From Promethearchaeia archaeon (GTDB lineage Archaea; Asgardarchaeota; Lokiarchaeia; Sigyniarchaeales; SOKP01): 64,000 nucleotides of DNA. The notes under the pieces are model-generated. The model was not told where the DNA came from. It was given only the letters and a program-made list of their open reading frames with translations, and made no database searches. The stretch covers positions 1 through 64,000 of the forward strand of contig JAHQWL010000002.1 in the NCBI GenBank assembly GCA_029856155.1, written 5' to 3'. Shown here piece after piece: positions 29,720 to 35,162 of the stretch. A program made the translations under genes and the position numbers. Position 1 is the first letter of the stretch. Every line of letters begins with the position of its first letter.

Positions 29720-32266
29720 TTATAAGTAAATAAAATAGTAATATATAGGAAATTGTGGTACTCCAATTAAACATAAAATAAACTGTGCTGCTATACTTGG
29801 TAAAATACTATTTGCTTTAAAACTCAAATATGTAAATAAATAACAAGGAAAAGAAAAAAGTAATATTATAAGAATTATATAAAAATAAGAAAATAGATTT
29901 AAGGGAAAACCTGCAAAATCTAAAAATACTATATAATAGATTAACAGTAACAATGTATCTAAAAATATTGCTTTTCTTTTATTTAAATTCTCTAATAGAA
30001 TTGTTAAAATAATACCATGAAAGAAAACTTCTTGCCAGATTATATTAGAAAAAAATAAACTTAAGGTGAAAATATCCCAAATTTCAAAGTAGAATACTTC
30101 ATCAATTATTAAACATATCGAAGAAATAAGAAATAATAGAAAAATTAATATTGAGACACCCCAAATAAAATATTTAGTTAATTTTTTAGACCACCTAGTT
30201 TTAATGCTGACTAAATATTGACTGATTGGTTGTTTTCCATATGGTAAATTGAGAACTTTTGGAATTATGATGATGAATAATACCATAGAACTTAAATTAT
30301 AAAAAATAAGTATTAATAATTTTTTAATCACAATTTCAATTTGATATGATGGGTTATAAAAATAGTAATAATGAATAGGAGGTATTGATTGATTTATATA
30401 AAATAATAGATAAATAGTCCCAAAAAACAATATCATTAGTAAAAATATAGAAATCCATGGATGCCTTAATAAATATGTATTTTTTGTTCCTTTCATAGAT
30501 TTGGGTTCTGTTTTAAGAAATGGTTTTGATTCTGGAATAATTGGCAGAATTTTATTGAAGAGAAGAATTGCACAGAGAAGACCTATAATGGATATTGATA
30601 GTAAAAAAATTACTAAATTAAGGAATTCGGTGTAGGTGTAAAAAAGTCTCAAAAAAAATATTATTCCTAAGGAGATACTATACTGTATCCCTATGATTAA
30701 AATCCATTTTAAAAAGCGGTTGCCTTGGTTAATTTCTTCTATAACATAATGATGTTTAAATTTACCAAAAAAAATGATTCTTAAGTCAAATATCAAAATA
30801 ATAAACATCCAACAAAAAAATAAAGAAGTTATTTCAGCTAAGAGTAAAATTATGAATTTAGGTGTAAAAATGTATAATAAAATTGGGAAAAAAACAGCAA
30901 GAGTCTGTAGAAAAATTAGTAAAATTAATTTTGCTTTTGCTTGATCACGATGGTTGATAGGTAATGAGGCAAGAACAGATTCTCCAGAAATTTCTACGTT
31001 TAATATACCATATACTAGCATACTTGAGATAACAGGGTTAAAAATTAATATACTTATTAAATTTAAAAGAAGATCTCTCTCTATTACGGTTTTTTCACCC
31101 ATATTAATAAGACCAAATGAAAATGTAAAAATACATGAAAATATTATTGGGATTATCATACTCAAGAGCATTTTGAGATCTCTTGTAGCAATTGATAAAT
31201 CTTTATGTAAATATGCTAAAATTGGTGAAAGTGTTTTAATATTTATTTGGATCTCATTTTTAAGCGAATTGATTCTATTTCCTTCCTTAATTTCTTTAAG
31301 ATTAGAGTAAGTAATTCTTTGAAGTGATTTTGATGCTTTTAAATGGATCAACCATGTTAAAGATACAAATACTCCTAATCCAATAAAAATACTTATCAAT
31401 AAGAATAAGGGTATTCCTTTATTCACAATAATAAATGATATGAAATAACTTGGATTAAATGGATATGGTAATATACTTAGAATTGTATTTATTATTGAAA
31501 TATCTTTAATTATAATAATTAATTGAATAACATTATCAAATGAAAATAAAATCCACTGGACCATATAAATTCCTCCAAGAATTACAATAATATAACTAAG
31601 ATTATGAAACAATTGAATTGCCAATCCTTTTTTTGAAGTAATTTTATTGAAAGCTAAGATTCGACTTAGTCTTTCTCCAAATAAAATAATAATATCAAAA
31701 CATAGTATGAAATTCAAGAATGAAATACCTAAAGATACAAAAAAAATAATCATATTTTGCGTTAAAACGATCATTGTAATTGGAAATGCTAATATTAGTA
31801 CTACTATTGGAATATCAAAAGTCCTAAAAATAGTTAAAGCAACTAACTTATGTAACTTATCTCTTGAAATTGGTAATGTTTCAAACCATCGAAAAACACT
31901 TCCTGATAGGATCATACTAAATTCTAATAACCCCATTAGAAAGAAATTTAAAAATTGTAAACTAAAATATAAGGTTAAGATAATACCTCCAATCAAAATT
32001 ACACTTTCCACAGAAATATTAAGATCTAATAAGTTATCAATAATATTTAAATAAACTAATGAAGGTATTATAGGTAGAAAGCCAAAAATTAAAGCATAAA
32101 TGATTTTGGAAATTAAGATCTTTATTTTGAGAATTCTCTGTTTTTTTTTGTATCTTTCTAAAATTTTTAACTGATAAATTCCCTTAGTTTGAAGTAAGGA
32201 TTCAAGATAAAGCTCTTTATTCACTTTTTTTGCTATTGAAAACAAACTCAATTTTTTTTCAGACAT
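29720..32266 (-). CDS. Large polytopic membrane protein (ABC-exporter permease-like, with degenerate CPBP-like C-terminal domain)
   Basis: About 20 hydrophobic segments. Two LPI-containing permease-like halves (ETLPISR, ASLPINH). C-terminal WQEVFFHGII resembles the CPBP EExxxRG motif. Confidence 0.55.
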   Translation of the reverse strand: MSEKKLSLFSIAKKVNKELYLESLLQTKGIYQLKILERYKKKQRILKIKILISKIIYALIFGFLPIIPSLVYLNIIDNLLDLNISVESVILIGGIILTLYFSLQFLNFFLMGLLEFSMILSGSVFRWFETLPISRDKLHKLVALTIFRTFDIPIVVLILAFPITMIVLTQNMIIFFVSLGISFLNFILCFDIIILFGERLSRILAFNKITSKKGLAIQLFHNLSYIIVILGGIYMVQWILFSFDNVIQLIIIIKDISIINTILSILPYPFNPSYFISFIIVNKGIPLFLLISIFIGLGVFVSLTWLIHLKASKSLQRITYSNLKEIKEGNRINSLKNEIQINIKTLSPILAYLHKDLSIATRDLKMLLSMIIPIIFSCIFTFSFGLINMGEKTVIERDLLLNLISILIFNPVISSMLVYGILNVEISGESVLASLPINHRDQAKAKLILLIFLQTLAVFFPILLYIFTPKFIILLLAEITSLFFCWMFIILIFDLRIIFFGKFKHHYVIEEINQGNRFLKWILIIGIQYSISLGIIFFLRLFYTYTEFLNLVIFLLSISIIGLLCAILLFNKILPIIPESKPFLKTEPKSMKGTKNTYLLRHPWISIFLLMILFFGTIYLLFYINQSIPPIHYYYFYNPSYQIEIVIKKLLILIFYNLSSMVLFIIIIPKVLNLPYGKQPISQYLVSIKTRWSKKLTKYFIWGVSILIFLLFLISSICLIIDEVFYFEIWDIFTLSLFFSNIIWQEVFFHGIILTILLENLNKRKAIFLDTLLLLIYYIVFLDFAGFPLNLFSYFYIILIILLFSFPCYLFTYLSFKANSILPSIAAQFILCLIGVPQFPIYYYFIYL

Positions 32267-32756: not shown

Positions 32757-32786
32757 ACATATACTATTTGAGGTGAGTAAGTTAAA

Positions 32787-33065
32787 ATGCACATTTCAAA
32801 ATATGAAATTAGATCGAAAGAAAAAGCCGAGAAAAATCTCGAAAATATAAAGGATGCCATAAAAGGCTTATATGAGATCTTGGATCTTACTCTTAGTAAG
32901 GATGATTTTTATTATGAAGCTGGTAAAGATAATATTACGGCAATTTATAAGAATCTGATTGAGTTATTATTGAATGATTATGGGCTCAGACATCTCTTAA
33001 AGAAAATCCAGAACTCAGAAGTAGATTTAAATATTGTGTTAAATGAATATTTAGCTAACGCATAG
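32787..33065 (+). CDS. Hypothetical helical protein (92 aa)
   Basis: ATG start with strong SD (GAGGTGA) and an upstream TATA box. No recognisable motif. Confidence 0.8.
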   Translation: MHISKYEIRSKEKAEKNLENIKDAIKGLYEILDLTLSKDDFYYEAGKDNITAIYKNLIELLLNDYGLRHLLKKIQNSEVDLNIVLNEYLANA

Positions 33066-33120
33066 ATTTTTCTTCTATTTTGATAAATTTTTTATATTAA
33101 TTAACGCTTAATTAATTTTC

Positions 33121-33197
33121 CAGTTCCCTGATCTCGTCCATGAATACTCACCTCAATCAGTGTTCAACCCTTCTTCAAGGAGATATCAGGGAACTGA
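33121..33197. repeat. Structured direct repeat, copy 1 (hairpin)
   Basis: CAGTTCCCTGAT (33121-33132) pairs perfectly with ATCAGGGAACTG (33185-33196). 33143-33197 matches 34764-34818 at 51/55 nt. Confidence 0.9.
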
Positions 33198-33381
33198 TCC
33201 TTATCCTATTATTTTTCTTCTTGAGTGATTGATACATCATATTTATTTAAATTAAAATATTTGAATATTTTGTATAACGACATTTTTGTCATTATTGTGT
33301 ATGAGATTTTTTGAAATGTTCAATATAATCATGGTTTCAGATTTCATGATTGTATGAATCAATTGGTGATTAATAGATACT

Positions 33382-34635
33382 ATGTGGGAGATTGTTAAGG
33401 ATGGTCAATATTCACTCATTAGGGAAATAGTTACCAAAAATCCGGAAATAATTCATAGAAGAAACCGTTTCGGATCTACGCTTTTGCATGCAGCTGCATA
33501 CTATGGAAATATTGAAATAGCTAAATTTTTGGTCGCTTCAGGTGCGGATATTTTCGCAAAGGACAAAAATGGATATACCCCTTTGCTAGTTGCTGGTGGA
33601 ATGAAGAAAAAGAATTTGGTTCAATATCTCCTTAATCTGGAACTCAATTATTCTATTAATAAAAATTCACAAAAAATAATTTCAGGGATTTCTGGTAAAA
33701 AATACGACTTTTTTATCAGTTATAAAAGCCAGAATGTTTATATCGCTAGACAGATCGTTGATCAATTAATATCAAGTGGTTATAACATCTGGTTTGCTGA
33801 ATATAGGATTTTATTGAAAGATCGCGGTCAATTTCAGACCGTTATCGACGAAGGACTGGCTAATTCCGAACAAGCTATATTATTTACCAATAAAATTTAC
33901 GCAGAATCTCCTTATTGCTCTGATGAAGCTGAAAAGTTGCTTCAAAATTATGGACAAGATAAAATCATCGAAATCAAAATTCCAGCAGAACCAGAAGTTC
34001 ACCAAAAATTTCCTGCCCTTGCAGGATGTAAATCGGTAGAGACATTCGATGTAAATGAGATGATCAACTTTTTAAAAAAGACTGTGGCACCAGCGGTTTG
34101 TACAATCGAAATAATACCATCAAAACCTGAATTTAAATTCGAAGGAGTCTGCAAAGGAGCTCCTTTTACCCTCTATGCATCAGGATGGAAGATTACACAA
34201 AAAGGAACCTCTTATCTGGGAGATATCGGAAATGGTCTCGAAATTAGATATAAAAAGGTCAAACAGAAGTTTTATATGAATATACACTTCAGCATCGATG
34301 AATCCGAGCTGGCTAAATTCAAATCGATGGATATTGTTTCCGCAGATGATAGAAAATTATATGATGCTCTCTTAGAATATTCAAAAAAACATGTTTCACG
34401 ACTAGATGCTGAAGTGTTGGGAGCTCACTTGGTTTTTCACGGTGGGGCTAGTCAACTAGCTCTTACATATTGGATGGGATACTGGACAAGAAAGTATAGC
34501 ATCACTCTTATACATCCAACATTGAAAAAGCCTGTAGAATTTTTGTTTACATTCGGTTTCCAGGGTACATTTCAAGAATACTGCCGATATGTACATATTA
34601 TGGATTCTGTTATAAAGTCTTTGGAATGGAAATAA
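33382..34635 (+). CDS. Ankyrin repeat + TIR domain protein with unknown C-terminal domain
   Basis: ANK motifs GSTLLHAAAYYGNIEIAKFLVASGAD and GYTPL. TIR box YDFFISY and SPYCSDE (putative catalytic Glu182). Confidence 0.85.
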   Translation: MWEIVKDGQYSLIREIVTKNPEIIHRRNRFGSTLLHAAAYYGNIEIAKFLVASGADIFAKDKNGYTPLLVAGGMKKKNLVQYLLNLELNYSINKNSQKIISGISGKKYDFFISYKSQNVYIARQIVDQLISSGYNIWFAEYRILLKDRGQFQTVIDEGLANSEQAILFTNKIYAESPYCSDEAEKLLQNYGQDKIIEIKIPAEPEVHQKFPALAGCKSVETFDVNEMINFLKKTVAPAVCTIEIIPSKPEFKFEGVCKGAPFTLYASGWKITQKGTSYLGDIGNGLEIRYKKVKQKFYMNIHFSIDESELAKFKSMDIVSADDRKLYDALLEYSKKHVSRLDAEVLGAHLVFHGGASQLALTYWMGYWTRKYSITLIHPTLKKPVEFLFTFGFQGTFQEYCRYVHIMDSVIKSLEWK

Positions 34636-34750
34636 TAGATTTAAACTTTATTAAGTTTTGATTTTACTTTTTATTTTAATAAAATGATTCTCTTGAATTT
34701 TATAATAAATATTTCCCAATTAGATAAAAAATTCTTGTTGAGAAAGTGGG

Positions 34751-34820
34751 AGCCAGCCCCTAAAATCCTCACCACAATCACTGTTCAACCCTTCTTCAAG
34801 GAGATATCAGGGAGCTGACC
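34751..34820. repeat. Structured direct repeat, copy 2 (hairpin followed by T-tract)
   Basis: 32-nt core TGTTCAACCCTTCTTCAAGGAGATATCAGGGA (34782-34813) is identical to 33161-33192. Outer stem CAGCCCCT/AGGG(A)GCTG. Confidence 0.9.
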
Positions 34821-34892
34821 TTTTTTGTTTTTTTATTTTTCTCAGTATGCCAGGATTTCACTATAAAATAAACTGAATGAAATAAAAAATTT

Positions 34893-35162
34893 TTACTCAG
34901 AACCAAATTGTCTATCTAAGTCAATCACTAAAGGAACTTCTTTTTCATCCTTCATAACAACAACTTTCAAAACACCATTCTCGATTGTAGCGCTCACAGG
35001 CTCAATCTTGGACACTTTTCCCCTTGTCCTCGAATTTAAACAAGTATGGGCCTCATCATAAAGATAGCATTTAGTACAGCAGAATCCAACTGGCATATAG
35101 CCGACAATGGAACATTGGTCATATGCATCGCAATTACAATTATTACACATTTTTTTCATCAC
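34893..35162 (-). CDS. Small Cys-rich protein with Hsp20-like C-terminal strand motif
   Basis: Eight Cys in the first 41 aa. SATIENGVLKV resembles the alpha-crystallin AxxxNGVL motif. Confidence 0.7.
   Translation of the reverse strand: MMKKMCNNCNCDAYDQCSIVGYMPVGFCCTKCYLYDEAHTCLNSRTRGKVSKIEPVSATIENGVLKVVVMKDEKEVPLVIDLDRQFGSE

Follow-up and report, generated by a model that had tools for sequence, protein, structure and literature searches.

A hairpin element that may control a small gene by antisense pairing borders a hot spot of defence genes in Lokiarchaeia

Does a gene that is bracketed by two hairpin repeats belong to a cassette system? This question is raised by a stretch of 64,000 nucleotides from a Promethearchaeia archaeon of the Lokiarchaeia (positions 1 to 64,000 of contig JAHQWL010000002.1, assembly GCA_029856155.1; hereafter the window), in which a gene for a protein with ankyrin (ANK) and TIR domains lies between two similar direct repeats, here called EL. 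An earlier note on this DNA had offered three explanations of the repeats: recombination sites of a gene-cassette system, a new non-coding RNA family, or a tiny miniature inverted-repeat transposable element (MITE). The reading that I hold with moderate confidence is that EL regulates CL1, the small gene that precedes it, that the CL1-EL block borders a hot spot of defence genes, and that EL copies arise via homology-driven additive recombination. The bracketing of the ANK-TIR gene is probably a by-product of gene gain and loss at this hot spot, not a new cassette machinery.

As the earlier note had described, two plus-strand copies lie 1621 bp apart, start to start (copy 1 at 33143-33221 and copy 2 at 34764-34842; 84% identity over 79 nucleotides). 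They share an invariant core of 32 nucleotides (33161-33192, identical to 34782-34813), a match that shuffles of the window never yielded. Copy 1, the primary full-length element (33120-33200, plus strand; 96.7 bits with the covariance model), is closed by a perfect stem of 12 bp (33121-33132 with 33185-33196) and folds at -29.2 kcal/mol (z = -4.6 against shuffles). It has an antisense loop at 33145-33156 and a T-rich run on its 3′ side that reaches about 33220. Copy 2, the distal copy (34753-34821, plus strand; 40.1 bits), is decayed; its homology to copy 1 starts only at element position 24 (34764), and its 5′ part differs. The claim that each copy is closed by a different stem held in part. 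Copy 2 does have a stem with a T-A to C-G change relative to copy 1, which is shorter (CAGC-CCCT at 34754-34761 against AGGGAGCTG at 34809-34817, with a single bulged A), but the copy as a whole folds no better than shuffles (z = +1.3 on the plus strand and -0.4 on the minus strand). With the latter value, the longer minus-strand stem claimed for copy 2 is unsupported, and the inner CCUU/AAGG hairpin said to be kept by both copies is not conserved in other clades. A T-run follows copy 2 at 34821-34842. No EL copy beyond these two was found in the same genome (4.1 Mb, 30% GC, 97% complete). A scan of the window with Rfam 15, a check that the earlier note had called for, gave no match at the gathering score, and the best E values at permissive settings were 0.8-9. 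ARAGORN found no tRNA gene in the window, and a tRNA or tmRNA remnant acting as an attachment (att) site was rejected as an identity of EL on the same search.

Is EL confined to this genome? Relatives were searched by BLAST and then with the covariance model (R1). EL was found in 25 of the 54 genomes of the genus, in 4 of the 39 genomes of a sister genus and in 15 metagenome contigs; the source names of homologous proteins assign the EL genomes to Lokiarchaeota/Promethearchaeota. It was absent from the other families of the order among those searched, a search of IMG/VR for EL on viruses or plasmid-like contigs gave no match, and a full-text literature search returned nothing on EL. Each genome has one to five copies, always as a single cluster at one locus. 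The internal sequence is conserved at 79%, and the arms, CAGTTCCCTGA and TCAGGGAACTG, are free of the attC boxes (RYYYAAC/GTTRRRY), as had been noticed in the window. Judging from these searches, EL is a family absent from Rfam and conserved in about 25 species.

The layout of the locus is constant. CL0, which encodes a pyridine-nucleotide oxidoreductase of 493 amino acids, is followed by CL1 (88-94 amino acids) and by the full-length EL with its T-rich run, which always lies 55-75 nucleotides 3′ of CL1. Then come variable genes interspersed with EL copies on the same strand, the last of them often degenerate, the convergent gene CL3 and an Hdr-like operon. In the window, CL1 encodes a small conserved protein of 92 amino acids (32787-33065, plus strand). 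CL3, a conserved Cys-rich gene of 85-89 amino acids (34893-35162, minus strand), is convergent with CL1 and forms the right border of the island, next to the Hdr-like operon. The CL3 cluster has 12 orthologues, each adjoining a distal EL, and in G027, G005 and G008 the EL beside CL3 is a 5′-divergent variant like copy 2. CL1 orthologues of at least 73% identity are present in exactly the genomes that carry EL, a strict co-occurrence in 21 of 21 genomes. EL-less species have the CL3-Hdr locus without the CL0-CL1-EL block.

What may EL do? The loop of copy 1, TACTCACCTCAA (33145-33156), is the exact reverse complement of TTGAGGTGAGTA (32768-32779, plus strand), a segment of the CL1 leader with the ribosome-binding site, which is proposed as the target of the loop on the basis of conservation and covariation at 30 loci. 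This 12-mer occurs at only two sites of the 4.1 Mb genome, in the CL1 leader and, reverse-complemented, in EL copy 1. Likewise, across 344 kb of related loci, the 9-mer GAGGTGAGT is confined to CL1 leaders and, in antisense, to ELs. The duplex of EL and the CL1 leader is predicted at -24.4 kcal/mol, against -12.4 ± 3.0 kcal/mol for shuffled leaders. For covariation, the 30 loci were aligned from the CL1 leader to the end of EL and the pairs of leader and loop were counted. At the ten central positions each of the 300 cells shows a standard pair, and no substitution in leader or loop disrupts one. A G-C pair has become A-U in G083 and G101, with a G-U intermediate in the related G001, while a U-A pair has become C-G in G033, which has one further G-U pair. 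The covariation score observed was reached by none of 500 shuffles. Distant CL1 homologues without EL also lack the extended leader. These results are good evidence that the pairing of the CL1 leader with the EL loop, as read on the plus strand, is under selection.

The unbroken pairs and the covariation across the 30 loci argue that EL most likely regulates CL1 rather than ANK-TIR. The ANK-TIR leader shows no more than chance complementarity to either EL copy, and its predicted duplexes with them are no better than those of shuffles. Copy 2 has also lost its loop complementarity to the CL1 leader (only 6 nucleotides, z = 0.0), and it is proposed to be an old, non-functional remnant. Therefore the repeats do not appear to control ANK-TIR at the RNA level, and the suggestion of an RNA-controlled defence module was not borne out. 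Among the three explanations first offered, a new non-coding RNA family is best supported, with a loop that covaries with a specific mRNA target. In the proposed mechanism, the apical loop UACUCACCUCAA would pair with the CL1 ribosome-binding site UUGAGGUGAGUA, most likely blocking or tuning CL1 translation. The pairing rests on sequence and covariation, from which I infer the effect on translation as the most likely consequence.

Several points weigh against this function. The covariation of leader and loop comes from just three changed lineages. Within the internal stems of EL, pairing holds in 89% of cells and double changes occur at five pairs; even so, the covariation of the stems is weak (22 pair types against 18.4, reached by 8 of 500 shuffles, in an alignment fitted to the model). 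The wobble counts of the stems, 54 G-U against 44 A-C, favour neither strand, and assigning the strand from these counts was given up as not decisive. In a first alignment RNAalifold returned only a trivial helix of 3 bp, the truncated copies having been misaligned. The EL transcript and its strand are themselves predictions. A candidate EL promoter, an A/T-rich TATA-like box (33086-33096, plus strand), lies about 27 nucleotides 5′ of EL; 13 aligned primary copies have an A/T-rich block at a similar distance, which carries no statistical weight in an intergenic region of 30% GC. With the A/T-rich box upstream and the T-run downstream, EL may be transcribed on its own, as a short RNA that terminates at the T-run, or may form the 3′ end of the CL1 mRNA.

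The CL1 protein is predicted to be soluble and to consist of three helices. It is hydrophilic and rich in lysine and glutamate, and its AlphaFold model (pLDDT 88.6) contains helices only. No match was found in Pfam, NCBIfam or PADLOC, nor in a profile search of PDB sequences or with Foldseek on the confident model. Distant homologues of about 50% identity have no EL or EL-like hairpin 3′ of them. A wider CL1 family (87-106 amino acids) occurs without EL in 48 of the 54 genomes of the genus, and the genome of the window has two distant CL1 paralogues of 28-32% identity on another contig (C97:29521-29712 and C97:34161-34328).

What lies between CL1-EL and CL3? In the window it is the ANK-TIR gene (33382-34635, plus strand; 417 amino acids), with Pfam matches to Ank (residues 5-93) and TIR_2 (residues 110-205); its C-terminal half (residues ~210-417) matches no family in Pfam, NCBIfam or PADLOC. 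Its homologues are split into two ORFs in G064, have lost 1260 bp in G005, are reduced by 5′ truncation to the last 204 nucleotides in G061, and lie behind another gene in contig L076. In G064, G061 and L076 the homology to the window ends at the stop codon of ANK-TIR, 34635. The gene is found with three different right-hand contexts. These comparisons indicate that what moves, is passed on and decays is the ANK-TIR gene itself and not a unit of gene plus repeat.

In the other genomes the cargo between CL1-EL and CL3 varies and is rich in defence genes. G024 has a TIR protein of 1010 amino acids and a lectin-like giant protein, and SIR2-TPR genes are found in G001, G008 and G024. G064 (L040:10439-13855) has a short pAgo of 471 amino acids (PADLOC, 5.6e-63) with two unannotated partner genes (431 and 233 amino acids) within an insert of 8.7 kb between two EL copies. 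In G003 (L037:8276-9965), a ShosA (188 amino acids, 3.6e-37) and a ShosT/PRTase-like protein (365 amino acids) lie between two EL copies; beside this Shosta-like pair are two tandem units of an LRR gene plus EL, apparently a recent tandem duplication. LRR proteins are cargo in several genomes, and further cargo includes GNAT, DUF401 and many unannotated proteins. Cargo genes occur on both strands, and several of them may lie between two EL copies, up to 11.6 kb. Several islands that otherwise differ share an ORF of 73 amino acids, CL16, located immediately inside the distal EL and beside CL3 (L005:1856-2077, L037:3940-4161, L065:1177-1398, L072:497-718 and L073:1103-1324).

Thus TIR, SIR2-TPR, pAgo, Shosta and LRR genes have been found across genomes between CL1-EL and CL3, and, as far as sequence comparison can tell, CL1-EL forms the left border of a hot spot for defence genes in one Lokiarchaeia clade. 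In the core defence hot spots reported, for example, from Pseudomonas aeruginosa (PMC10250203), fixed core genes likewise flank sets of defence systems that vary strongly between related genomes. The EL locus differs from these in being lined by a repeated regulatory RNA-like element and in its Asgard host. Empty sites, which the earlier note had suggested looking for, exist in five cases: a single EL lies directly between CL1 and CL3 in G033, G083, G101, G119 and contig L063. Set against the single-EL site of G033, the sequence left of copy 1 and the sequence right of copy 2 form one contiguous alignment, and in the empty-site genomes the single EL has a flank homologous to the one downstream of copy 2. 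The first proposal of the note, gene-cassette sites, was right to this extent: EL copies bracket variable genes, and single-repeat sites without ANK-TIR exist. The mechanism that it implied is probably wrong, as the following shows.

How did the secondary copies arise? Relative to the primary copy, their left ends lie at -190, -127, -122, -103, -94, -89, -80, -77, -73, -31, -27, -15, -12, -1, 1, 1, 6, 18, 18, 19, 24, 24, 25, 25 and 25. Their right ends fall between +83 and +140, except for two at +218 and +227, and the duplicated repeat is from about 60 to more than 300 nucleotides long. Fragments of the CL1 3′ end (16-34 codons) precede at least five secondary copies. EL2 of G064 retains the last 18 nucleotides of CL1, and the duplicated segment of contig L073 reaches to the right, into CL3 at its 3′ end. 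G064 appears to be a window-like haplotype (CL1-EL1-ANK-TIR plus 123 nucleotides) joined to a G027-like haplotype, whose part starts 18 nucleotides before the CL1 stop (CL1′-EL-flank). When about 45 cargo proteins of some 10 genomes were scanned with Pfam and PADLOC, no integrase, transposase, recombinase or other mobile-element gene was found, in agreement with what had been noticed in the window. Since the duplicated segment varies in length, includes fragments of neighbouring genes and is accompanied by no recombinase, homology-driven additive recombination fits better than att or attC sites. From the loop onward, the distal copies are 0.82-0.98 identical to the primary copy of their own genome in 14 of 18 genomes, compared with an average identity of 0.61-0.76 to the distal copies of other genomes. 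Several distal copies share a distinct 5′ signature across clades. The high identity within a genome together with this signature points to repeated recombination or gene conversion between EL copies.

In the scheme proposed here, new DNA would enter beside CL1-EL by homology-driven additive recombination, either by a single crossover of a circularised fragment or by one homologous end and one illegitimate join. The anchor would be the conserved CL1-EL (or EL-CL3) segment, and the second join would fall at a variable point nearby. Each event would duplicate, around the new cargo, the part of the anchor that lies between the two joins, so that CL1 keeps a full EL at its side and the interior of the island gains EL copies, partial or complete. 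Later on, these copies would decay or recombine among themselves, and recombination between copies could also remove the cargo and return the site to a single EL. The ANK-TIR gene of the window would be one such cargo. Some facts sit uneasily with this scheme. Many cargo ORFs are unannotated, which leaves room for a novel recombinase. About eight distal copies have their left end near 18-25 and a common 5′ signature, GCCCC.T.AAT; instead of common ancestry, this cluster could reflect a point at which crossovers preferentially occur. How the first duplication originated and how donor DNA passes from cell to cell are both parts of the scheme that I infer.

Some loci depart from the common layout. 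G003 has an extra inverted EL beside CL0 (L038:5095-5171; G003:C7:93094-93170), between two CL0 fragments of 76 amino acids and a degenerate CL1 3′ fragment. In G011 (L049), G029 (L044), G017 (L047) and G007 (L045), the CL1-EL module is inverted relative to CL3 and the intervening genes are housekeeping-like (Fer4, FAD oxidoreductase, TrmB, GDPD and SCP2), an arrangement that represents a chromosomal inversion with one breakpoint at EL. In the window, an ORF of 848 amino acids without a Pfam match lies between CL0 and CL1 (29720-32266, minus strand), where many relatives have only about 280 nucleotides. According to a language-model prediction, scored highly by the model but to be taken as a lead only, the protein would span the membrane several times and carry an Rce1-like CAAX protease domain. 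The slot between CL0 and CL1 holds an unrelated gene of 1146 amino acids in G036 and one of 600 amino acids in G024, and it may be a second variable spot.

Could EL copies nevertheless be dedicated att- or attC-like sites, at which a recombinase encoded elsewhere or of an unrecognised type regenerates EL? I regard this as unlikely, although the locus has much that would suit it: direct repeats bracket diverse cargo, empty sites exist, EL is an imperfect palindrome, and, as in islands that target tRNA genes, the intact copy is always by CL1 and the truncated copies are distal. The best argument is the start of about eight distal copies near position 18-25. Against it stand the annotated inserts without integrase or transposase and the genome of the window, whose sole PF00589 tyrosine recombinase (C81:1587-2093, 311 amino acids) is on another contig and which has no PF00239 (serine recombinase) match. 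The variable repeats that may hold pieces of CL1 or CL3, the cargo on both strands, the three contexts of ANK-TIR and the lack of EL on viral contigs or outside this locus also speak against such sites. Genomic islands in tRNA, tmRNA and small RNA genes carry partial gene copies as flanking direct repeats. The EL locus resembles them in its flanking direct repeats with an intact RNA-like gene at one end, truncated far copies, serial accretion of cargo and empty sites. Unlike them, it has no integrase or other mobile-element gene in the cargo scanned and no core of fixed length (left ends from -190 to +25, right ends from +83 to +227), its repeats may hold fragments of protein genes, and the same ANK-TIR cargo occurs with different repeats. 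Arrays of integron attC sites are also similar in that hairpin-forming repeats separate cargo genes beside a fixed platform. However, no IntI lies beside the EL array, whose neighbours are the oxidoreductase gene, CL1, CL3 and Hdr-like genes. Integron cassettes are mostly co-oriented and promoterless, each with one gene and a terminal site, and the cargo does not follow this pattern. Moreover, sequence and not structure alone is conserved in EL, and each repeat is a copy of the element that belongs to the platform itself. A dual role, in which EL would regulate CL1 by antisense pairing and also serve as the specific landing site at which an unrecognised Lokiarchaeia recombination system stacks defence cassettes, seems to me slightly more doubtful still. 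Such a system might employ an Xer or repair enzyme co-opted to act on the hairpin, or else a novel recombinase; if this were true, the locus would be an archaeal functional analogue of the integron platform. That EL is a MITE or an insertion-sequence end is hardly credible. The small size and the 12-bp terminal inverted repeats would suit such an element, but the MITE proposal was rejected because copies occur at one locus only (1-5 per genome, always by CL1 or within the adjacent island); in addition, the conserved interior of EL covaries with a host mRNA, the copy boundaries vary, and no transposase was found.

Other readings concern the pairing itself. Antisense control of a ribosome-binding site is known from the small RNAs of type I toxin-antitoxin systems (IstR-1/tisB) and from the hok mRNA, in which the 5′ and 3′ parts fold back on each other. 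As in these systems, EL is a structured RNA-like element beside a small gene, with a loop of 10-12 nucleotides complementary to the translation-initiation region of that gene; the complementarity is unique in the genome and is maintained by compensatory changes. CL1-EL could then be a type I-like toxin-antitoxin or addiction pair, with CL1 harmful when translated in excess and the EL RNA as antitoxin, that stabilises the neighbouring defence island. The strict co-occurrence of CL1 and EL and the position of the pair at the island edge would agree with this. Typical type I toxins, however, are short membrane peptides, usually hydrophobic and toxic, while CL1 is predicted to be a hydrophilic three-helix protein of 92 amino acids; it matches no toxin family and has distant homologues without EL. 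The larger CL1, the archaeal host and an EL that may be either a separate small RNA or an mRNA 3′ untranslated region also set the pair apart from type I systems, and I consider an addiction pair improbable. The complementarity of 12 bp might instead be a DNA inverted repeat around CL1, forming an invertible switch or a protein-binding site, with EL having no function as RNA. Inverted repeats of 10-12 bp do flank a segment of 365 bp with the entire ORF, and the inverted CL1-EL modules of G011, G029, G017 and G007 and the extra inverted EL of G003 could be taken in its favour. This is nonetheless a very unlikely explanation, since the orientation of CL1 to its promoter and leader is the same in 30 of 30 loci, the inversions seen are large rearrangements ending at EL rather than flips between the 12-mers, no invertase gene is nearby, and the G-U intermediate of G001 fits RNA pairing.

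A few further identities were tried and rejected. A C/D-box snoRNA on the minus strand gave weak hits (E 0.8-8), and its boxes are not conserved in other clades. A small peptide encoded in EL was dismissed, the ATG not being conserved and the indels not being multiples of three. The LRR family CL8 was considered as a hidden integrase and found to consist of LRR repeats only.

EL is thus probably a new, conserved RNA-level regulator of CL1, as its pairing and covariation suggest. To my knowledge no regulatory RNA has been described in Asgard archaea, and I know of few regulatory RNAs or hot spots described so far in Lokiarchaeia. With EL there is now a concrete candidate for the control of translation by RNA in Asgard archaea. 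Its locus is a recurrent defence hot spot of Lokiarchaeia with clear flanking markers and natural empty sites, and it would be useful for mining new archaeal defence genes. A repeat-flanked gene need not be a cassette: a strongly conserved short element can act as a homology anchor and leave repeat-bracketed cargo behind without a dedicated recombinase.

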